Part shown: piece after piece, positions 5,078 through 16,111 of the stretch
Numbering within the stretch: position 1 is the stretch's first letter
How the letters are laid out: every line of letters begins with the position of its first letter
Assembly (NCBI GenBank): GCA_947628965.1
Contig: CANRBV010000001.1
Span: 41,225 to 105,224 of the forward strand
Length of the DNA stretch: 64,000 nt
Source of the DNA: an uncultured Bacilli bacterium
GTDB taxonomy: Bacteria; Bacillota_I; Bacilli_A; RF39; UBA660
Reading direction: 5' to 3'
Program-made: the position numbers and the translations under genes
Notes under the pieces: generated by a model
What the model saw: the letters and a program-made list of their open reading frames with translations, nothing else
What the model was told of the DNA's origin: nothing
Databases searched by the model: none

Positions 5078-6292
5078 ATGGAGTTAATTGAAAAATTAAA
5101 AATTCTAGCGGATAGCGCAAAATATGATGCCTCCTGTTCTTCTAGCGGAAGCCGAAACGAAAGTAAAAATGGCATAGGAGCAACGGCCTTTAGTGGAATC
5201 TGTCACTCTTTTGCAAGTGATGGAAGATGTATTTCTCTACTCAAAATTTTAATGACCAATAGTTGTATTTTTGATTGTAAATACTGTTTAAATCGTAGAA
5301 GCAATTCGATTAAGAGGGCCTTGTTTACTCCCGAGGAAATTTGTGAAATTACTTTAAATTTTTATCGACGCAATTATATAGAAGGTTTATTTTTAAGTTC
5401 AGGTATTCTAAAAAGTCCTGATTATACGATGGAACTTTTAATTAAAACGATTACTCTATTACGTAAAAAATATCATTTTGGTGGCTATATTCATTGCAAG
5501 GCTATACCTGGAGCAAGTGAAAAATTATTAAAGGAATTAGGTCGTTTGGTCGATCGCTTAAGTGCAAACATAGAGCTTCCTACAGAAAATGGTTTAAAGC
5601 TTTTGGCTCCTAATAAGGAAAGTAAAAAGATAGATAAAATTATGCAATATGTAAAAGAAAATCAAAGCAAACGATTTGTTCCAGCAGGACAAAGTACCCA
5701 AATGATTATTGGAGCAACGAAAGAAACAGATTTAGAAATCATGAATAAAAGTGCTGCAATGTATAAAAATTATCATTTAAAACGGGTCTTTTATTCAGCT
5801 TATATTGGAGTCAATCATGATTCTTTACTCCCTACGTTAGAAAATCCTCCCTTAAAACGGGAAAATCGTCTTTATCAAGCGGATTGGTTACTGCGCTATT
5901 ATCATTTTAAAGTAAATGATTTATTAAATGAAAATAATCCGAATTTCAACATTTTGGTTGACCCCAAGTGTGACTGGGCGCTTCGTCATTTAGATGAGTT
6001 TCCAAAAGAAATCAACGAGTGCTCCTATCAAGATTTATTAAAAATTCCTGGCATTGGCGTTACAAGTGCTAAACGTATTTTTTCTTCTCGTAAGGTATTT
6101 ACTCTTACTTTTGATGACTTAAAAAAAATGGGTGTTGTATTAAAAAGAAGCAAGTACTTTATAACTTGTAATCATAAATATTTATTAGACCCAAGTATGT
6201 ATCAAAAAAAGTTTATTGAATCCAATTTAATTTTAGAAGAAAAAACGCCTTTAAAAAAAGAGTATGAACAATTGAGGTTATTTAATGAATAA
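5078..6292 (+). CDS. Radical SAM protein, putative DNA modification/repair family
   Basis: CxxxCxxC radical-SAM cluster (CIFDCKYC); N-terminal Cys-rich block and overall layout typical of the radical-SAM DNA-repair family that pairs with DUF4130. Confidence 0.75.
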   Translation: MELIEKLKILADSAKYDASCSSSGSRNESKNGIGATAFSGICHSFASDGRCISLLKILMTNSCIFDCKYCLNRRSNSIKRALFTPEEICEITLNFYRRNYIEGLFLSSGILKSPDYTMELLIKTITLLRKKYHFGGYIHCKAIPGASEKLLKELGRLVDRLSANIELPTENGLKLLAPNKESKKIDKIMQYVKENQSKRFVPAGQSTQMIIGATKETDLEIMNKSAAMYKNYHLKRVFYSAYIGVNHDSLLPTLENPPLKRENRLYQADWLLRYYHFKVNDLLNENNPNFNILVDPKCDWALRHLDEFPKEINECSYQDLLKIPGIGVTSAKRIFSSRKVFTLTFDDLKKMGVVLKRSKYFITCNHKYLLDPSMYQKKFIESNLILEEKTPLKKEYEQLRLFNE

Positions 6293-7028
6293 CGTTTATA
6301 TTTATAATGATACATTTTTAAGTCTTTTAAATCTTATAGATTATTTAATTTTACATCATATAAAGCCTTATCAAATTAAAAATAGCCAATATCAAAGCAC
6401 TTTACTGGATAATGTTGTCCATCTTGCTATCGAAGAAAAAGATATTGCAGGTAAAATTGTTAGGGAAATGGGTTCTTATTCTTTACAACAAATGTATTAT
6501 GTTTTTCTATCGAATGTGGAAGCTAAAGAACTTATCTTATATTATTTTTACTTAAATGGGTTAAAATACTATAGGGACATTTTTAAATATCGCAATTTAA
6601 AATGCGTGGATAAAGTTTTAAAGATTGCAAAACTGGTTCAAAACGAGTGCCATAAATACAAAGGTTTTGTTCGATTTAAAGAGTTTAATAATCACGTTTT
6701 ATACGCTGAAATAGAACCTAGTAGTGATTGTTTAGAAATTCTTTCTATTCATTTTAAAAGGCGTTTAAAAAATGAGTATTGGATTATAAAAGATGTAAGA
6801 AGAAATCTATTAAGTCTGTATGATAAAAAGGAATTTCATATCGTAGATGGCACTACTTTTTCATTAGATAATATTTTGGAAAGCCGTGAAGAAGAAAAAA
6901 TAGAAAATTTATGGAAAGCTTTTTATCAAACGATTGGAATTAAGGAACGAAAGAACGATACTTGCCGTAGGAATTTTATGCCTAAAAAATATTGGAAATA
7001 TATGTTAGAGGTGAAAAGTGAATTATGA
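6285..7028 (+). CDS. DUF4130-type probable DNA metabolism protein (radical-SAM partner)
   Basis: 8-nt overlap with the upstream radical-SAM gene; size and conserved pairing. Confidence 0.6.
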   Translation: MNNVYIYNDTFLSLLNLIDYLILHHIKPYQIKNSQYQSTLLDNVVHLAIEEKDIAGKIVREMGSYSLQQMYYVFLSNVEAKELILYYFYLNGLKYYRDIFKYRNLKCVDKVLKIAKLVQNECHKYKGFVRFKEFNNHVLYAEIEPSSDCLEILSIHFKRRLKNEYWIIKDVRRNLLSLYDKKEFHIVDGTTFSLDNILESREEEKIENLWKAFYQTIGIKERKNDTCRRNFMPKKYWKYMLEVKSEL

Positions 7029-8539
7029 AAAAAGTAATAATGAAAGAAGAATTACAAGAAAAAATGCAAGAAAGTATTCATCTTTTATGTGGTATTGTAA
7101 AAGAGACTTTAGGGCCAAACGGAAAAAATGTTTTAATTGATCACTCCTTATTTTCTCCTTTTATTACAAATGATGGAGCAACAATTGCTAGAAATATTGA
7201 GTCGGAAGATGCTATTATCAATACGATATTAGAAATTGCCAAAGAGTCTTCTTTAAAAACCGATAGTAAAGTTGGGGATGGAACGACTACAACGCTAGTG
7301 TTACTAGAAAGTATTTTTGATCATGGGTTGGAACTTATAAAAAAGGGGATGCCTCCTATTCTTTTTAAAAAAAATTTAACTAAAAGTTTAGAAAAGGTTT
7401 TAAATTCTTTAGAAAAAGAAAAACATCTTCCTAAAAATAAGGAATATGAAAGCTTAAGTATTATTGCTGCCAACGAAGAGGAGCTTGGGAAATTTATAAA
7501 TCACGTTTATCAAAAAATTAAAACGAAAAATGGAATTGAAATTGTAGAAACGGACCAAAGCATCTTAAGTGTTCAATATGAAAATGGATATCAATTTCCC
7601 ATAGAACTTGGTAGTCCACTATTTTTAAAAGAGCAAGAGAAAATTTTTTTAGAAAATCCTGTATTTCTTTTTGTTGAAGAACAAAACTCTTCTTTAGAAG
7701 ATTATAGTATGTATTTAAATGCTGCTATGAAAAATAAATGGGATGTTGTTTTTATTGCTAAAAATTTTAATGATTCCTTTATCCAAGAATGTCTTTATTT
7801 AAATGATACGCAAACCATAAATTGCTTTTTGCTTAAAATTGGAGAGTATGGAATAAAAGAATCAATTATTTGGAAAGATATAAAATTTATAACGAGTCAA
7901 AAAAAGAATTGTAAGGGAATTACGTTAACAAAAGAAAAGGCCATTTTAAAATTTACAAATTCTTTAAAAACACAAGAATATTTAAAAACAATTGAGGAAG
8001 AACTAAAGAAAATAAAAGATGAATTTGATGAAGATTTTTTTAAAAAACGTATGGCCATGTTTTTAAATGGTTTGGCAACTATTGTTTTGGGTGCCCCAAC
8101 AAAAATTGAATGTCACGAGAAAAAAATGCGTCTTATCGACGCATTGTGTGCTTTAGAAAGTGCTAAAGACGGAGTTGTTACAGGTGGAGGTATTACGTTT
8201 TTAAAAATTGCAAATGAATTAGACATTAAAAATGAAACGGACCAAATTTTACAAGAAGCTTTGAAAATACCTTTTAAACAAATTCTTTTAAATTCGGGAC
8301 TTTCTTATGAAAAAATAAAAAAGACGATTGAAAAGGAAGAATATCATGCTGTTTTTAATGTTTCTAAAGATCGTTTTGAAAAAGTAAGCGACACACAAGT
8401 AATTGATTCTTATAACGTTTTAAAACAAACTTTAGAAAACGCTTGCTCCATTGCCATGATGTTACTTACAACCAGTAGTTTAGTAATCAATGAGCAAGAA
8501 AATAATTTAGGAAAAATAAACGATTATAATGAACTATAA
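7025..8539 (+). CDS. Divergent chaperonin (Cpn60/TCP-1 family), closer to group II/III than GroEL
   Basis: LGPNGKNVLID...ITNDGATIARNIE and GDGTTTTLVL ATP-binding motifs; VVTGGGITFL near the C-terminus; 504 aa; 4-nt overlap with the DUF4130 gene. Confidence 0.65.
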   Translation: MKKVIMKEELQEKMQESIHLLCGIVKETLGPNGKNVLIDHSLFSPFITNDGATIARNIESEDAIINTILEIAKESSLKTDSKVGDGTTTTLVLLESIFDHGLELIKKGMPPILFKKNLTKSLEKVLNSLEKEKHLPKNKEYESLSIIAANEEELGKFINHVYQKIKTKNGIEIVETDQSILSVQYENGYQFPIELGSPLFLKEQEKIFLENPVFLFVEEQNSSLEDYSMYLNAAMKNKWDVVFIAKNFNDSFIQECLYLNDTQTINCFLLKIGEYGIKESIIWKDIKFITSQKKNCKGITLTKEKAILKFTNSLKTQEYLKTIEEELKKIKDEFDEDFFKKRMAMFLNGLATIVLGAPTKIECHEKKMRLIDALCALESAKDGVVTGGGITFLKIANELDIKNETDQILQEALKIPFKQILLNSGLSYEKIKKTIEKEEYHAVFNVSKDRFEKVSDTQVIDSYNVLKQTLENACSIAMMLLTTSSLVINEQENNLGKINDYNEL

Positions 8540-8771
8540 ATAGACACAATTTTAATTAAAAATGTTTTATAGTTTTTTGCTTCTTTATACTTTTTTTATA
8601 TTCTTGTTTCTAAAAGATTCGTTTATTCCCAATACTTAATATTTACAATAATTCAGCTATCTTTAATTTAACAGACACTGTCTGGAATTTTGGATATTTA
8701 GCGTTTATCAAAATAATTTTTTAAAAAAACATATCTATTGGAATCATAGAGAAATATTTATCCAAAAAAAA

Positions 8772-8800
8772 GAATACCTGCGCGTATTCCTTTCTCTAGA
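8772..8800 (+). terminator. Putative terminator after the chaperonin-like operon
   Basis: gaatac-ctgcgc-gtattc hairpin followed by a T-rich tract. Confidence 0.3.
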
Positions 8801-8968
8801 TTGTTTTTTTAAATACCTGGTCGCATTTAAAAACAATTTATTAAAACATAACTTTTATTATGTCTTAATCATAAATGGGGCAAAATTCCAATAGGCATAA
8901 AACCTTTTTTATTTGCTCTCTTTTAATAACTTTATTTTATTAAAATTCCTTTTATTTGTCAATAAATT

Positions 8969-10663
<1,695 letters not shown>

Positions 10664-10780
10664 TTATATTAAAAATACTACTATATTTTTTTTAATATTT
10701 TCTCCTCTCACTACTTATTATATGCAAAAATATTTTTTTTTAATGATTAGCCCCAAAAAACTTAAAAAATAGAGAAGATA

Positions 10781-11371
10781 TTATCTTTTTAATAAATTAT
10801 AAAAACTATTTGGCTTTAAATTTAACATTTCTATTGCTTCTTTACTTTTTATTTTTTTATTTTTCCATAATTCTATAACATAATCATAATTACTTGGCTT
10901 TTCTATTTTTGGGCGACCAAATCTTATTCCTTTATTTTTTGCATTAGAAATTCCTTCCTTTTGCCTTTGCTTAATAAATGACCTTTCTTGCTCTGCGACA
11001 TAACTTAATATTTGCAATACTAAATCACTAATAAATGTGCCTAATAAATCTTTATTATTCCTTGTATCTAATAATGGCATATCTAAAACAACAATATCTG
11101 CTTTTATATTTTTTGTAATTTCTTTCCATTCTTCAATTATTGCATTATAATTTCTTCCTAATCTATCAATACTTTTAATTACTAATAAATCATTTTCCCT
11201 TAATATATTTTTTACTATGCTATATTGCTTTCTTTCAAAATCTTTTCCACTTTGCTTATCAATATAAATATCTCTCTCTTCTATGCCATATTCTTTAAAT
11301 GCTAAGATTTGCCTTTCTTCATTTTGCTCTTTGCTACTAACTCTACCATAGCCAAATACTTTATTTTTCAT
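10781..11371 (-). CDS. Small serine recombinase (resolvase/invertase) with C-terminal HTH
   Basis: GYGRVSSKEQNEERQ catalytic serine motif; about 190 aa. Confidence 0.85.
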   Translation of the reverse strand: MKNKVFGYGRVSSKEQNEERQILAFKEYGIEERDIYIDKQSGKDFERKQYSIVKNILRENDLLVIKSIDRLGRNYNAIIEEWKEITKNIKADIVVLDMPLLDTRNNKDLLGTFISDLVLQILSYVAEQERSFIKQRQKEGISNAKNKGIRFGRPKIEKPSNYDYVIELWKNKKIKSKEAIEMLNLKPNSFYNLLKR

Positions 11372-11378
11372 TTTATAC

Positions 11379-11639
11379 CTACTTTGCTAAAAAATTGCTT
11401 ATTTCTCTAAAGATTCTATCTATAATAACATCTTCAAATGTTCCTACTAATTCTACTATGATATTATTATCTTTTAATTCACCAATGAAGTTAGAACATG
11501 CTATTAAAAATGGAAATTCTTTTTTTCTTTCTTTTTCTTCTTCCAATGTATCCAAAATATTATCAACATAACCATCACAGACAAATGATAATATTTTTCT
11601 TAATTCATTTTCTCTCATTTTATGGCACCTCCTTACCAT
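11379..11639 (-). CDS. Hypothetical protein (86 aa)
   Basis: ORF 8 nt downstream of the resolvase gene's start, same strand. Confidence 0.45.
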   Translation of the reverse strand: MVRRCHKMRENELRKILSFVCDGYVDNILDTLEEEKERKKEFPFLIACSNFIGELKDNNIIVELVGTFEDVIIDRIFREISNFLAK

Positions 11640-11795
11640 AAAATATTATAGAAACATTCGTTCTATTTCTCAACCAATTTATTTAAAAATCTCAAAAAAA
11701 TTTATAAACATTTAAAAAATCAATTTTAAACTTTTATAAACATAAAAAAAGACTTAATCTTAATAAGAATTAAATCTTTATAAAATTACACTTTT

Positions 11796-12293
11796 TTAAA
11801 CACTATATAAATTCTTTATTTCTTCGCTTGGCAATACTAATGTAAAATCAATATCATAAATATTTATTAACTCATTTAATTTTTTAACAATTTCTTTTGC
11901 TATATCATTATGCTTATAACCATGTACCCCTGTCCCTATGCTAACACTAATAATACTTTTATAGCCATTATCTTTTGCTGATATAAATATTTTTTCATAA
12001 CTATTTAATAAATCTAATAGGGGAGAATTGCTTTCATAATATTTTGGAGAATATATATGCAAAATATCAATACCTAAATCAAAACCAGGACTATATCTAA
12101 TTTCATTAACTCTCATATTTTCTTTATAATTCTTTTTACAATAATCTTCTAACAATTCTTTATTTGCCTTTTTATATATTGCCCCACAAACACCACTACC
12201 ACATATCATATATTTATTATTACTATTAACTATTAAATCTTTATTTTCTAAATAATCAAATATATTGCCACTTATAACATTTAACTTACCCAT
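11796..12293 (-). CDS. Macro-domain protein (ADP-ribose binding / ADP-ribosyl hydrolase-like)
   Basis: ISGNIF...IVNSNN...GSGVCGAIYKKAG pattern corresponds to the macro-domain Gly-rich ADP-ribose pocket. Confidence 0.65.
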   Translation of the reverse strand: MGKLNVISGNIFDYLENKDLIVNSNNKYMICGSGVCGAIYKKANKELLEDYCKKNYKENMRVNEIRYSPGFDLGIDILHIYSPKYYESNSPLLDLLNSYEKIFISAKDNGYKSIISVSIGTGVHGYKHNDIAKEIVKKLNELINIYDIDFTLVLPSEEIKNLYSV

Positions 12294-12310
12294 TAGACCA
12301 CCTAAAATAT

Positions 12311-13216
12311 TTATTCAAATTTATTTAATATTTGCCCATTTCTATAATAATCTTTATCAGCATATCTAATGCATATTACATTATTATTGCTATCTAAATA
12401 AATAATAATATTATCAATATCATTACTTTTTATTCTATAACCTTTTGACCCATAACCCTCAAAACCATCTAAACTCTCGCTATCTGCTTTAATACTATCA
12501 AATTTATCAATACCTACTTTATTTAAAATATTATATATATTATCAGCTTGTTCTTCACTTATATTCATTTCGCTTTTTATTTTATTACTATAATCAATAT
12601 TTTTACCACTATTTAAAACAGCAATAACTAATATTATTATAACAAATATTATAATTCCTAAAAATACATAACCTAAAACATTTAGCCTTTTATATGCCTT
12701 TTCATTTATAATAATCTTACAATTAGGACATTTAATATCGCTAATACTTAATTCTTTGCCACACTTAGGACATTTTAAATCGCCTTTTGATAAATTAACA
12801 ACACTATTTAAACATTTAACAAACTTACTCCCAGAAAATGCACCATTTACATAAACACTAATAACTTTATCTTCGCCATTTTCTTTATAATTAACAATTA
12901 TATATTGCACATCTTCCTTTATTTGCTTTTTGCCCGTGCCACTTAAACCACCTAAAACTAAACCAACATTACCAAACAATAAACCACCAGCAACACCTCT
13001 GCCAATAGCACTTTTATTTTTTTCTACTATATGCTTATCACTAATAACCCCAGCATTAACAATATCTTTTAATGCTATTTCCTTAAATACTTGCCCTCTA
13101 ATATCGCAATATTTTAAATTATAATTAGTAATTTTTAATATGCAATTCGCATCTTCTCTAATTTCTAATCCCTCATAATGCTTTGCATTAACTTTTAATA
13201 TTTCTTTTTCTTTCAT
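12311..13216 (-). CDS. Hypothetical zinc-ribbon membrane protein
   Basis: Gly-rich segment; CPKCG...CPNCK zinc ribbon; single TM helix; C-terminal domain of about 90 aa. Confidence 0.55.
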   Translation of the reverse strand: MKEKEILKVNAKHYEGLEIREDANCILKITNYNLKYCDIRGQVFKEIALKDIVNAGVISDKHIVEKNKSAIGRGVAGGLLFGNVGLVLGGLSGTGKKQIKEDVQYIIVNYKENGEDKVISVYVNGAFSGSKFVKCLNSVVNLSKGDLKCPKCGKELSISDIKCPNCKIIINEKAYKRLNVLGYVFLGIIIFVIIILVIAVLNSGKNIDYSNKIKSEMNISEEQADNIYNILNKVGIDKFDSIKADSESLDGFEGYGSKGYRIKSNDIDNIIIYLDSNNNVICIRYADKDYYRNGQILNKFE

Positions 13217-13343
13217 TTTCTACACCTTTCTTTATAACTTTTCTATATCAATGCTTTACTTAGCAAATAGCCAATTTTTTGATAAATAATATATAACTAT
13301 ATTAAAATTATTAAATCTTTTAAAAACGAGCAATAAATAGAAA

Positions 13344-14135
13344 TTATAATTCACTCAATACTTTATTTATAAACTTTTCTTTATTTCTGCCAATACTAAT
13401 ATTATCTAAATAAAAATTCCCTGAACCTATTAACCAAAATATTTTATCTACTTTATAAGGACTTTCATTGACAGCATTAGCCATTTCTATAACTGCCTTA
13501 TATACAGAATAATCATTATTTTTACACAAATTAAAAGCAAAAAATATATCTTTAATATGAACATCTGCTTTTGGATATTCTTTAAAGCCTAATTCTTTTA
13601 AAAAATCACAAGCGAGAGGAAATCCTAAACCAATTATTTCTTTTTCTAATAACATAGGCAGAGCAGCAGAGGAAAGAGAATTATAACTAAACATTTTGAC
13701 AAACTTATCAAAATCTTTTTCACTTTTAAATTTTTCTACAAATTCACAAGCAGATATAACTGACTTAGCATATAATCTCCATAGATTATTTTTACTTTCT
13801 TTATTTTTAATTACAAAATTATTATCGAATTCTTTTAATAAACTATCAGCATTATAATTACTTAATATTTTTTTACTATCATAATGACATAGAATATTAT
13901 TGAATGCATCTTTTCTTTCTGCTTTTTCTAAGCCAATAACATTAGATGACATTTGCCTATTTTGCAATGATAATAATAATCTATATAAAATATCATTTTT
14001 GCTTTTAAAATTCTTTTTTACATTAAAATATATATTTATATCTTTTATTTCTCTAGGACATAATTCCATTAAAAACTTATAAGCACTATTATATATTTTC
14101 TTTAATTTAATATTCCTTGCTTCTATATCACTCAT
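13344..14135 (-). CDS. Hypothetical protein (about 263 aa; start taken at MSDIEARN with GAGGT RBS)
   Basis: ORF; internal ATG preceded by gaggt at 8-nt spacing. Confidence 0.5.
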   Translation of the reverse strand: MSDIEARNIKLKKIYNSAYKFLMELCPREIKDINIYFNVKKNFKSKNDILYRLLLSLQNRQMSSNVIGLEKAERKDAFNNILCHYDSKKILSNYNADSLLKEFDNNFVIKNKESKNNLWRLYAKSVISACEFVEKFKSEKDFDKFVKMFSYNSLSSAALPMLLEKEIIGLGFPLACDFLKELGFKEYPKADVHIKDIFFAFNLCKNNDYSVYKAVIEMANAVNESPYKVDKIFWLIGSGNFYLDNISIGRNKEKFINKVLSEL

Positions 14136-14257
14136 TTTAAGAACCTCGCTAAGAACATTATAACATAAAAATATATAATTTAACACATATTGATATAACT
14201 AATATTGCTATCACTGATTTCTAATAAATTTAAAATTATATATGAGAGGAGGACTAT

Positions 14258-14587
14258 ATGGAAAACAATTTAAAGAAAATAAGAAACAGCAAAAACTTAT
14301 TACAGACTAAAGTTGCTATGGATTTAAACATAACCCAAGAGACTATATCTTCTTATGAAACTGGTCGCGTTTTTCCAAGTTCTGATATGCTTATTAAAAT
14401 TGCTGATTATTATAATACATCTATTGATTATTTACTTTGCAGAACTAAATATGATATGCCTATTGATAATATTAAACCAAATAATATCTCAGATAATGAT
14501 TTTATTCTTTTAAATAAGATAAATAAATTATCTCCTATCAATAAATCAAAAGTTGAAAGTTACATTGATGGATTAAATGATAGATGA
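14258..14587 (+). CDS. XRE-family (Cro/CI-type) HTH transcriptional regulator
   Basis: LLQTKVAMDLNITQETISSYETG helix-turn-helix; GGAGG RBS upstream. Confidence 0.8.
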   Translation: MENNLKKIRNSKNLLQTKVAMDLNITQETISSYETGRVFPSSDMLIKIADYYNTSIDYLLCRTKYDMPIDNIKPNNISDNDFILLNKINKLSPINKSKVESYIDGLNDR

Positions 14588-14855
14588 TTATATATATATG
14601 AATTTAACTATTAAATCGCCTTAATTCCTTTAAAAATATAAAATTATAATTCTAATTCATATAAAGAATTCTTTATAATTTTATATTTTTTTTATATGAT
14701 TTTTATATTTCATTTTTTCTCTTTTTTATATAACTTTCTTAATTATTTTATATTATTTTTATATTATTCTTATAATACTTTTAATAATATAATAACTATA
14801 ACTATATAAAATAATTATATATTATATGATAGAACTTTTACGATTATTATTTTAT
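14588..14855. repeat. Very A/T-rich intergenic region with short direct repeats (ttttatattatt x2, tataat-type repeats); possible replication origin or regulatory region
   Basis: Direct repeats read in sequence between the convergent XRE and Rep genes. Confidence 0.3.
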
Positions 14856-15635
14856 CTAAATGCTTATATCTTCTTCAAATATTCTATTTCTTCTACTAAG
14901 ATTTTCCTGTACTTTATTATCTTCTAACTTTAATTCATAATTTTCTTTAATCTTGCTTATTCTTATTTTTCTCATAAACTCATTAGAATTTTTTTTATCT
15001 TGCTCTTTCGTTATTTCAAAATAGAAATTCTTTATTTCATAATATTTTTGCTCTAATGCTAATCTTCCTTTTTTACCATTTATGACAAATTGACTTATAT
15101 ATTTTACATAAGCATAATATAAATCTTTTAAACTATATCCCTTTGGAATTACATTTTCACTACAATAATTACAAAATAATACTTCTTCGCCCTGATTTAT
15201 AAAATATTCTGCTTTATTTATATTTGCATTTTTCTTATATATTTTTAGATTAGCATAATTTATTTTATCTCTTTTAATTTTATTCTTATACCAATTTTTA
15301 TCTATATAATTTTTTATTAAATCTCTAAACGCATAACTTGGAATCGATACCAATAAAATATGAATATGCCAATCTACATTTATAATATCTTCATTATCAA
15401 AACCTTTTAATACTTTTTTTGGGCGACCAACTTTTCCATTTTTTTCATAACAAACCCTCGTATTATTGCCTTTAACATTACTAATACAAATCATTGCCTC
15501 TGCTTCCCAATTTCTTTTTTTACAATTATATCTTATAAATTCAATTAAACTTTTAGCATGCTTTTTTGCTTCTTCCTTACTTTTAAATTTTATATTCAAA
15601 TCGAAAGTTGATAAACCTAATTTTTTCTTTGACAT
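14856..15635 (-). CDS. HUH-endonuclease superfamily rolling-circle replication initiator-like protein
   Basis: DWHIHILLV = HUH motif (H-hydrophobic-H-hydrophobic x3); downstream Tyr-containing segment; lies in the mobile element. Confidence 0.55.
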   Translation of the reverse strand: MSKKKLGLSTFDLNIKFKSKEEAKKHAKSLIEFIRYNCKKRNWEAEAMICISNVKGNNTRVCYEKNGKVGRPKKVLKGFDNEDIINVDWHIHILLVSIPSYAFRDLIKNYIDKNWYKNKIKRDKINYANLKIYKKNANINKAEYFINQGEEVLFCNYCSENVIPKGYSLKDLYYAYVKYISQFVINGKKGRLALEQKYYEIKNFYFEITKEQDKKNSNEFMRKIRISKIKENYELKLEDNKVQENLSRRNRIFEEDISI

Positions 15636-15640
15636 AATAA

Positions 15641-15931
15641 TTACCCCATATTCCTTATAGCATTTATCAATTTTTTTAACATGGGAGCATTTATTACGAT
15701 ATTTTTATTATATAAATACAAATTTAGATTATCATAGCATAGCAATACTAAATATATATCATTAACCTTAATAATAAATCTATGAGGCTCTATAAAATTA
15801 ACATTTGTTTTTTCAACTTTAAATATAAAACCATTTTTAAATTCTAATTTTACATTATTAAATACACATATATTATTTAACTTATTATAAATATTCTTAT
15901 TTAATGGCATAACTTCTTTACTAAATTTCAT
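15641..15931 (-). CDS. Hypothetical protein (96 aa)
   Basis: ORF immediately downstream of Rep. Confidence 0.4.
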   Translation of the reverse strand: MKFSKEVMPLNKNIYNKLNNICVFNNVKLEFKNGFIFKVEKTNVNFIEPHRFIIKVNDIYLVLLCYDNLNLYLYNKNIVINAPMLKKLINAIRNMG

Positions 15932-15956
15932 ACTATCAAACCTTTCTTTTTAATAA

Positions 15957-15990
15957 CAAAAAAACTAGGATTTCCTATTGAAATTCCTAG
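15957..15990 (-). terminator. Rho-independent terminator downstream of tRNA-His
   Basis: ctagga..tcctag hairpin followed by a 7-T run on the minus strand. Confidence 0.5.
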
Positions 15991-16034
15991 CCTTTGCTAT
16001 AATCAAAAACCTTAAAGGTTTGATTTCCCAAATA

Positions 16035-16111
16035 TGGGGCGAAATGTGGGGATCGAACCCACGCATACCGGAGCCACAATCCGGCGTGTTAACCACTTCA
16101 CCAATTCCGCC
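16035..16111 (-). tRNA. tRNA-His: tRNA-His (anticodon GUG) with encoded G-1 and 3' CCA
   Basis: Folded by hand: 8-bp acceptor stem including G-1:C73; anticodon loop TTGTGGC (GTG); T-arm GTGGG-TTCGATC-CCCAC; CCA encoded. Confidence 0.9.

Follow-up and report, generated by a model that had tools for sequence, protein, structure and literature searches.

The window (the whole stretch of DNA that was analysed, 64,000 nucleotides (nt) long) is low in guanine plus cytosine (~27%), and its closest public relatives are genomes of uncultured Bacilli assembled from rabbit-gut metagenomes. At the 3' end of its gene for tRNA-His lies an island of 7,159 bp (8876-16034). Within the island, an earlier note on this DNA had pointed to three minus-strand open reading frames (ORFs) at 11796-12293, 12311-13216 and 13344-14186, reading them as a macro-domain gene and two neighbours that might form a toxin/antitoxin or anti-defence module based on ADP-ribosylation. 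The ORFs are real (their homologues, 297, 81 and 556 matches respectively, set them apart from chance ORFs). The island itself is best supported as a small serine-recombinase element with interchangeable accessory genes, many of them defence genes, around a fixed macro gene.

I will refer to the 301-amino-acid (aa) protein of the second ORF as o301 and to the 263-aa protein of the third (280 aa if read from its GTG) as o280, and will give L-numbers to loci of related genomes. Slot A is the space between xre and the macro gene; slot B reaches from the macro gene to the 86-aa gene. Most of the islands in the comparison were retrieved through the macro gene, o280, o301 or near-identical resolvase or xre sequences. 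Family models were taken from Pfam, NCBIfam, PADLOC and PHROGs, and structures from the PDB, by profile search and by Foldseek. The features of the island are as follows.

8876-8886, no strand: distal island end, direct repeat TGGGGCAAAAT; homology to five independent island copies ends at 8874-8876
8969-10663, minus strand: large serine recombinase, the island integrase (Pfam Resolvase 3.9e-36 and Recombinase 1.6e-19; phrog_95 integrase 3.4e-97)
10781-11371, minus strand: small serine recombinase of the resolvase/invertase type, 196 aa (Pfam Resolvase 1.5e-25)
11379-11639, minus strand: conserved small backbone ORF, 86 aa; homologues, 52-57% identical, occupy the same position in related islands
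11645-11673, minus strand: promoter-like site TTGAGA-17-TATAAT (11/12, a consensus match only), preceding the recombinase unit (86-aa ORF, resolvase, integrase)
11796-12293, minus strand: 165-aa macro-domain protein of the MacroD/alphavirus type, whose gene is the constant one in this family of islands
12311-13216, minus strand: cargo cassette 2, o301, 301 aa; PH_gly_zipper (PF27000), zinc ribbon, transmembrane helix and small C-terminal domain
13344-14135, minus strand: cargo cassette 1, o280, HhH-GPD DNA-glycosylase-like, 263 aa; the ORF reaches a GTG at 14186
14258-14587, plus strand: XRE/RstR-type repressor, xre (Pfam HTH_3 9.3e-14; NCBIfam phage_RstR 4.8e-18), divergent from the unit of slot A and macro gene
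14650-14782, no strand: AT-rich 66-nt direct repeats, two copies, 76% identical, between the end of xre and the 259-aa gene
14856-15635, minus strand: conserved backbone ORF, 259 aa, 42-57% identical in related islands
15641-15931, minus strand: conserved backbone ORF, 96 aa (Pfam search and related-island comparison)
16035-16110, minus strand: tRNA-His (GTG); positions 16035-16045, at its 3' end, serve as proximal direct repeat and attachment core

Read in the island's own orientation, the order is tRNA-His, the 96-aa and 259-aa genes, xre (pointing the opposite way), o280, o301, the macro gene, the 86-aa gene, the small resolvase, the large serine recombinase and the distal repeat.

Ends, mobility and slots of the island

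A direct repeat of 11 nt, with the consensus TGGGGC[A/G]AAAT, marks the two ends: TGGGGCAAAAT occupies 8876-8886, and TGGGGCGAAAT, at 16035-16045, forms the 3' end of tRNA-His. The distal copy matches this 3' end in 10 of its 11 positions. The limits were set against independent assemblies with an identical resolvase or xre, in which homology is lost at 8874-8876 and at the tRNA-His 3' end. The island recurs almost unchanged in at least four other chromosomal contexts: copies 99-100% identical adjoin Cpn60, HD/GreA with CotJB/LigD, Polysacc_deac, or ABC/GntR in different assemblies. Since the same island stands beside different genes in different assemblies, it moves. The insertion point is tRNA-His at three of these sites, and one copy, near-identical to that of the window, occupies a site outside any tRNA gene, with the core TCGCTCCA (L110:2074-2200). 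The mobile setting claimed in the earlier note is thus borne out by the direct repeat, the tRNA-His end, the serine recombinases and the copies in different contexts, and with a recombinase at one end, ends defined by repeats and several genomic sites, the element belongs among the integrative islands of large serine recombinases.

The L110 core TCGCTCCA resembles the tRNA-His 3' end, TCGCCCCA. From the sequence of its sites, the large serine recombinase is suggested to recognise a short core and to be able to use secondary sites.

The macro gene is present in all of the approximately 35 distinct island variants tabulated, at 62-100% identity. Slot A, by comparison, holds o280, o301, a 214-aa protein, or proteins of 188, 172 or 204+260 aa, alone or stacked, the stacking order being 214 aa, o280, o301. 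o301 is missing from between o280 and the macro gene in the 8 closest genome loci, where the macro gene comes directly after o280 in 7 and after a 94-aa ORF in L008; in many other islands it is o301 that directly precedes the macro gene. o301 is an exact ORF-sized insertion or deletion relative to L002. In L107 (6166-7061) a frameshift breaks it into 82 + 222 aa, and in L001 all that is left of it is a 74-nt internal remnant (1891-1964); there o280 and the macro gene are still whole and the recombinase genes lost. Judged by these sequences, o301 behaves as a cassette, one that is decaying in sister copies. The comparison of islands leads to the rejection of a fixed three-gene module, and it corrects the role first given to the macro gene: taken for cargo, it is a backbone gene, and its two neighbours are the cargo.

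Slot B is empty in the window (11640-11795). In relatives it is either empty or filled with unrelated genes, which include GajA (1.9e-84) with GajB (6.5e-36), that is, Gabija, the defence-associated reverse transcriptase RT_UG13b (4.7e-127), a PifA-like KAP NTPase (4.2e-39), PDC-S49 (1.6e-50) and DUF4145/HEPN-like genes. There are, then, variable genes between conserved flanks and recognised defence systems among the variants, as in a defence-cargo hotspot. Small serine recombinases mark defence loci in Bacillota, KAP NTPases included (PMC13552941), and the contents of slot B agree with this published link. The family of islands is not described in the literature searched. The window contains a defence-cargo island that is unusual in its fixed macro anchor and that carries two candidate defence genes, both uncharacterised.

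One related locus deserves separate mention. The sister island in L086 (7918-9813) has a UG13b-type defence reverse transcriptase in slot B and, after it, a protein of 631 aa that consists of seven repeats of the DUF4379 treble-clef zinc finger (E 6.6e-109). The protein has no PADLOC match and may be a partner of the reverse transcriptase.

The gap between o301 and the macro gene is 17 nt, with a ribosome-binding site (AGGTGG) before the macro gene, and beyond the macro gene come an AT-rich hairpin with a run of T and then the strong promoter-like site TTGAGA-17-TATAAT. Because of this short gap with its ribosome-binding site, the hairpin and T-run, and the promoter-like site that follows, the macro gene is taken to close a transcription unit diverging from xre; o280, o301 and the macro gene appear to make up this repressor-proximal unit, with the macro gene last. 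The layout is read from consensus matches and from the sequence itself.

Among the remaining backbone genes, the small serine recombinase is 80-90% identical in related islands. The macro gene had been placed between the resolvase and the zinc-ribbon protein (o301), and these neighbours are right, except that the 86-aa ORF (11379-11639) stands between the macro gene and the resolvase. This ORF, called as 79 aa in other assemblies, matches no family in Pfam, NCBIfam, PADLOC or PHROGs. The 66-nt direct repeats could be iterons of the island, origin or operator sites. The 259-aa protein carries the motif DWHIHILL (DWHLHLII in L002), HUH-like as read by eye, which would fit a rolling-circle Rep or a relaxase; no match to the protein was found in Pfam, PHROGs, NCBIfam, PADLOC, the PDB or plasmids. 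Outside the island, a 504-aa chaperonin gene of the Cpn60_TCP1 type (thermosome/CCT-like), unusual for Bacilli, flanks it (window 7025-8539), and two overlapping ORFs (5078-6292 and 6285-7028) precede this gene, possibly in one operon.

The macro protein

The earlier note had recognised a macro domain in the 165-aa ORF, and correctly so: Pfam PF01661 matches it with an E-value of 4.9e-15 (55.9 bits, the cut-off being 22), with residues 22-133 covering positions 1-116 of the 118 in the profile, which makes the protein a member of the macro domain superfamily. Thirty-nine macrodomains in the PDB match it at E up to 0.01, the best solved relative being the MacroD-type protein of Oceanobacillus (OiMacroD, 5lcc; E 3.8e-8). 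The subfamily was retrieved essentially only in these islands. Close relatives are absent from sequenced phages and plasmids (one 30% match in phages; plasmid matches below 35%), and since o280 and o301 have no phage match at all, an origin of the three genes from phages or plasmids was rejected.

When catalytic residues are compared with those of MacroD and alphavirus nsP3, the Asn at the catalytic position (N26) is found to be kept, as are the loops that bind the phosphates of ADP-ribose, GSGV and SVSIGTGVHG. Set beside the MacroD signature (Nx6GG[VLI]D with G[VIA][YF]G), N26 and the glycine loops are present, the Asp is replaced by Cys36, as in alphavirus nsP3, and the Tyr/Phe by His; Tyr40 takes the place of the following His, giving GSGVCGAIYKK. 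The motif quoted in the earlier note is there, ending in KKAN and not in KKAG. Alphavirus macrodomains with this Cys are active mono-ADP-ribosylhydrolases, and the residues just listed make hydrolase activity plausible for the island protein as well. Its motif is almost identical to that of the nsP3 macrodomains of Barmah Forest virus (BFV; GAGVCGAIYRK) and eastern equine encephalitis virus (EEEV), whose sequences for this comparison come from PMC12421852. The motifs NSxN...GSGVCGAIYK and SVSxGTGxHGYKH are kept in 120 homologues and match alphavirus nsP3 macrodomains.

The macro protein is most likely, and most simply, an orphan ADP-ribose eraser. The island encodes no transferase to match it, and as a catalytically competent mono-ADP-ribosylhydrolase it would strip off the ADP-ribose that the ADP-ribosyltransferases or toxins of phages or rival elements put on host or island targets, and so protect the one or the other. 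Orphan ADP-ribose hydrolases are known to serve as protection, as do the DarG-like and NADAR enzymes of phages and the PARG that gives immunity to RhsP2 (PMC11825919, PMC13309987, PMC11481870, PMC11833690), and the idea that host macrodomains undo an anti-CRISPR ADP-ribosyltransferase has been raised (PMC12421852).

Two other roles for the protein have to be weighed. One would have it protect the DNA of the island, removing ADP-ribose that DarT-like or CmdT-like defences of the host add to single-stranded island DNA or RNA during replication or transfer. Orphan DarG-like or NADAR enzymes serve phages to this end (PMC11825919, PMC13309987, PMC11481870), the macro gene sits in a backbone position, and the HUH-like motif of the 259-aa protein hints at single-stranded DNA intermediates. 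The HUH reading, however, finds no support in any database, the absence of close relatives from sequenced phages and plasmids speaks against such a use, and the protein is of the MacroD/viral type, not of the DarG/TARG1 class that cleaves thymidine-linked ADP-ribose (PMC9411070 and general knowledge). I consider this role unlikely, if worth bearing in mind.

The other is that of a metabolic housekeeping enzyme, an O-acetyl-ADP-ribose deacetylase or ADP-ribose-1''-phosphate phosphatase, which hitch-hikes on the island. The best family matches are indeed to the O-acetyl-ADP-ribose deacetylase equivalogs of NCBIfam (E 1e-12), and the matching structures are of the YmdB/MacroD kind. Yet the equivalog scores, ~47 bits, fall far short of the cut-offs of 200-290 bits, neither a sirtuin nor a tRNA-splicing gene lies in the island, and the near confinement of the subfamily to these islands, with its strict conservation as an anchor between defence slots even across diverged islands, points to a role related to the island. 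A housekeeping role is very unlikely for these reasons, and the orphan eraser remains the account of the macro protein that I prefer.

The two slot A proteins

For o280 the likely start is the ATG at 14135 (263 aa), which has GAGG 9 nt upstream and is the start called in public assemblies. An AlphaFold2 model built from 43 sequences reached a predicted local distance difference test score (pLDDT) of 94.5. When it was compared with the PDB by Foldseek, the interpretable top matches were all DNA glycosylases: MjOgg, Tm1821, EndoIII, Mag1/2, AGOG, MutY and OGG1 (top entries 3knt, 3fhf, 3n0u, 4unf, 1orp and 4hsb). The family profile aligns GLGxxLAxxFLKxxG...D to the archaeal Ogg2 structures 3fhf and 3knt, that is, to their helix-hairpin-helix (HhH) and catalytic Asp, and G169, G171 and D191 are invariant in the family, at the canonical spacing of 20 residues. 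A viral fold library gave only weak glycosylase-like matches (E 0.016 or worse). The two-lobed helical fold, the GxG of the hairpin and the Asp some 20 residues downstream place o280 in the HhH-GPD superfamily. It lacks the mark of the bifunctional glycosylase-lyases of the Ogg2/EndoIII kind, a catalytic Lys in the second HhH helix, where Pro/Ala is found instead (GIGYKEA in MjOgg against GLGFPLA here, with Ala in the family consensus). Because the catalytic Asp is present and the lyase Lys absent, o280 would be monofunctional.

At 50% identity the family falls into about 800 clusters (E up to 1e-10), spread across bacteria and archaea. It has no model of its own in the copy of Pfam used, and 40 of 43 sampled members match Ogg-HhH weakly. 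Only a DUF1653 fusion was found among its domain fusions, and it is uninformative. Outside the islands, members adjoin genes of MmeI, McrBC, ResIII, Eco57I and HsdR. DNA glycosylases are an established means of defence, as in Brig1-3 (PMC13160076), and o280 is a candidate defence DNA glycosylase. The base that it would flip out of invading DNA and excise is probably a modified one, and abasic sites would be the result.

Two observations concern the family itself. Directly upstream of o280 homologues (L126:5402-6828; L009:79-1409; L005-L007 around 7173-8783) lies a protein of 200-214 aa whose sequence, read by eye, has a PD-(D/E)xK-like motif; the 214-aa protein pairs with o280 both in islands and in an unrelated context associated with IS21, and the two may be a two-gene unit. 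Separately, 7 of 43 family members (alignment A1; P0330) weakly match Pfam HPF1 (histone PARylation factor 1), with a best E of 4.7e-4, below the gathering score. A relation to HPF1 was rejected, there being only these sub-threshold Pfam matches and no support from sequence or fold searches of the PDB or from the literature.

The model of o301 is less certain (pLDDT 73), and Foldseek matched it only to PH/PTB domains. The protein, which joins a PH-glycine-zipper, a zinc ribbon and a transmembrane helix, may act at the membrane in exclusion or abortive infection.

The earlier note had supposed that one of these neighbours would be an ADP-ribosyltransferase, opposed by the macro protein as a DarG-like antitoxin or as an enzyme reversing the toxin's action. 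That the macro domain is carried by a mobile element and is co-transcribed with its neighbours suits such an arrangement, as does a weak PADLOC match to DarG (E 0.0023). Neither neighbour, however, has the required fold. o280 is an HhH-GPD protein, and o301 combines a PH-like domain, a zinc ribbon and a transmembrane helix. No DarT or other ADP-ribosyltransferase fold was found in the products of 13344-14186 and 12311-13216 by profile search of the PDB (for o280), AlphaFold2 models or Foldseek. Nor do the two show an H-Y-E or R-S-E core, and no ADP-ribosyltransferase, DarT or toxin family was found by Pfam, NCBIfam or PADLOC. An ADP-ribosyltransferase was therefore rejected for o280 (by the profile search against the PDB, the model and Foldseek) and for o301 (by domain content, model and Foldseek).

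Membership of the macro protein in DarG was rejected likewise: the NCBIfam DarG model (NF048014) gives 13.7 bits against a cut-off of 250, as compared to ~47 bits for MacroD-type models, the 165-aa protein has no DarG C-terminal domain, and the island has no DUF4433 (DarT-like) gene. Across related islands, moreover, the macro gene is constant and its neighbours are non-homologous and interchangeable, which is not what a toxin/antitoxin unit would show. I regard such a unit as barely credible here. Of the suggestion that the macro protein reverses ADP-ribosylation or counters defence, what survives is a plausible part as a hydrolase in conflict, with the binding loops and N26 kept; what fails is its membership in DarG.

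A different link between o280 and the macro protein can be imagined. Three kinds of hydrolase, unrelated in fold, are neighbours of the o280 family: macro (in the island clade), ARH and NUDIX. A glycosylase of the o280 type and a hydrolase of ADP-ribose or sugar (macro here, ARH elsewhere) might act as a two-enzyme unit on decorated DNA bases, analogous to Brig3-BapA, the hydrolase trimming the adduct and the HhH-GPD enzyme excising the base, or the two serving as alternative routes of repair. The order o280 then macro in the 8 closest loci (with a gap of 3 nt in L004) fits, as does the persistence of the pair in L001 and L004, where no recombinase genes were detected downstream. ARH (PF03747) adjoins family members in L021:7327-8723, L026:7986-9735, L034:7986-9735 and L040:7974-10706, with gaps of 4-20 nt in three of the four, inside MmeI or McrBC loci, and the NUDIX neighbour is found in L134-136. 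A glycosylase together with a hydrolase that removes decorations also has precedent (PMC13160076), and the HPF1 matches mentioned above would suit a connection with ADP-ribose.

Against this, the macro gene is equally constant in islands without o280 (having the 214-aa protein, o301, the 188-aa protein or other cargo), and in the window o301 separates the two genes. ARH occurs in only 4 of 72 non-island loci, two of these being near-duplicates, and the HPF1 matches, all below threshold, have no counterpart in Foldseek or phmmer. The ARH-like ORF that adjoins brig3 is not required (PMC13160076). The identification of BapA itself as an ARH-like protein was rejected, since according to the Brig3 paper the dispensable ARH-like gene is ORF3 and BapA is a different ORF (PMC13160076). 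A two-enzyme unit is thus quite unlikely in the island, and I would put the broader proposition, that the o280 family works with ADP-ribose hydrolases of unrelated folds in processing ADP-ribosylated or sugar-decorated DNA bases, in the same low range. Were it true, it would amount to an HhH-GPD counterpart of Brig3-BapA, or to a base-excision route for DNA ADP-ribosylation.

The island among known systems

The reading I favour, and judge to be somewhat more probable than its negation, is that of two swappable slot A cassettes and a backbone macro gene in a 7.2-kb tRNA-His island, with no toxin/antitoxin set among them. In this reading the cargo proteins would be stand-alone anti-phage effectors, o280 acting on the bases of invading DNA and o301 as an abortive-infection or exclusion factor at the membrane, and the macro protein would act as the orphan eraser described above. 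The structural and architectural conclusions (folds, boundaries, mobility, the constant and variable parts of the island, the defence genes of slot B) are held with high confidence. The roles assigned to the proteins, with their predicted activities and targets, are tentative and may well need revision.

Several results weigh against the favoured reading. The o280 family is found also in contexts unrelated to defence, for example beside TIM/PGK or NUDIX genes, and o280 could be a repair enzyme; neither o280 nor o301 matches a defence system in PADLOC. The universality of the macro gene is biased by sampling, most of the islands having been retrieved through the macro gene, o280, o301 or resolvase/xre. 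The macro gene is placed in one transcription unit with slot A, and in no complete locus does it stand without at least one slot A gene, so a functional link to slot A is possible. Finally, with His for the usual aromatic residue in G-x-[YF]-G and Cys for the MacroD Asp, the macro protein could be a binder of ADP-ribose and not a hydrolase.

The analysis removes a tempting but wrong annotation, that of a macro antitoxin with a hidden ADP-ribosyltransferase toxin. In its place it gives a picture of a compact, actively moving family of islands of gut Bacillota, in which defence genes are exchanged and the macro gene stays fixed. It offers two candidate anti-phage genes, for an HhH-GPD glycosylase-like protein and a PH-glycine-zipper membrane protein, and both slots are a place to seek new defence genes in the poorly studied Bacilli of the gut. 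The target of the macro eraser would reveal which ADP-ribosylating weapons these bacteria face.

Among known macrodomains, the macro protein is closest to those of MacroD and alphavirus nsP3 (5lcc, E. coli YmdB, human MacroD2, and nsP3 of chikungunya virus, BFV and EEEV), with a full-length match of fold, the catalytic Asn and both phosphate-binding loops, and with BFV and EEEV it shares a nearly identical GxGVCGAIY[KR]K. It differs in being a stand-alone bacterial protein of 165 aa on a chromosomal island, in having Cys for the MacroD Asp (as do the alphaviruses) and His for the aromatic residue of G-x-[YF]-G, and in scoring below every NCBIfam equivalog cut-off. With DarTG and the orphan DarG-like and NADAR enzymes by which phages counter DarT (PMC11825919, PMC13309987, PMC11481870), it has in common an ADP-ribose hydrolase carried by a mobile element in conflict and the logic of an orphan eraser. 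Unlike DarTG, the island has neither a DarT partner nor the DarG C-terminal domain, its macro domain is of another class, and the DarG models score far below their cut-off.

o280 has the fold of Ogg2, AGOG, EndoIII and Mag, with the HhH GxG and then, at identical spacing, the Asp 20 residues on. It is only ~15% identical to them, has Pro/Ala for the lyase Lys, forms a separate family, and is found in variable or defence regions, whereas theirs are core repair loci. With Brig1, Brig2, Brig3 and Brig3-BapA (PMC13160076) it shares the setting, a protein of DNA-glycosylase fold in defence islands or mobile cargo, a proposed excision of phage-specific bases and a possible hydrolase partner. The Brig enzymes belong to the uracil-DNA-glycosylase superfamily, and o280, whose action on phages is a proposed one, to HhH-GPD.

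The island as a whole resembles RADS (PMC13552941), the P2/P4 hotspots and elements of the Tn4451 type: it too is small and has both a large and a small serine recombinase, and its family has Gabija, defence reverse transcriptases and KAP NTPases in variable slots next to the small recombinase. It differs from them in that its serine recombinase targets tRNA-His, in its backbone proteins of 259, 96 and 86 aa without assigned function, and in having the macro gene as a fixed anchor between two slots.

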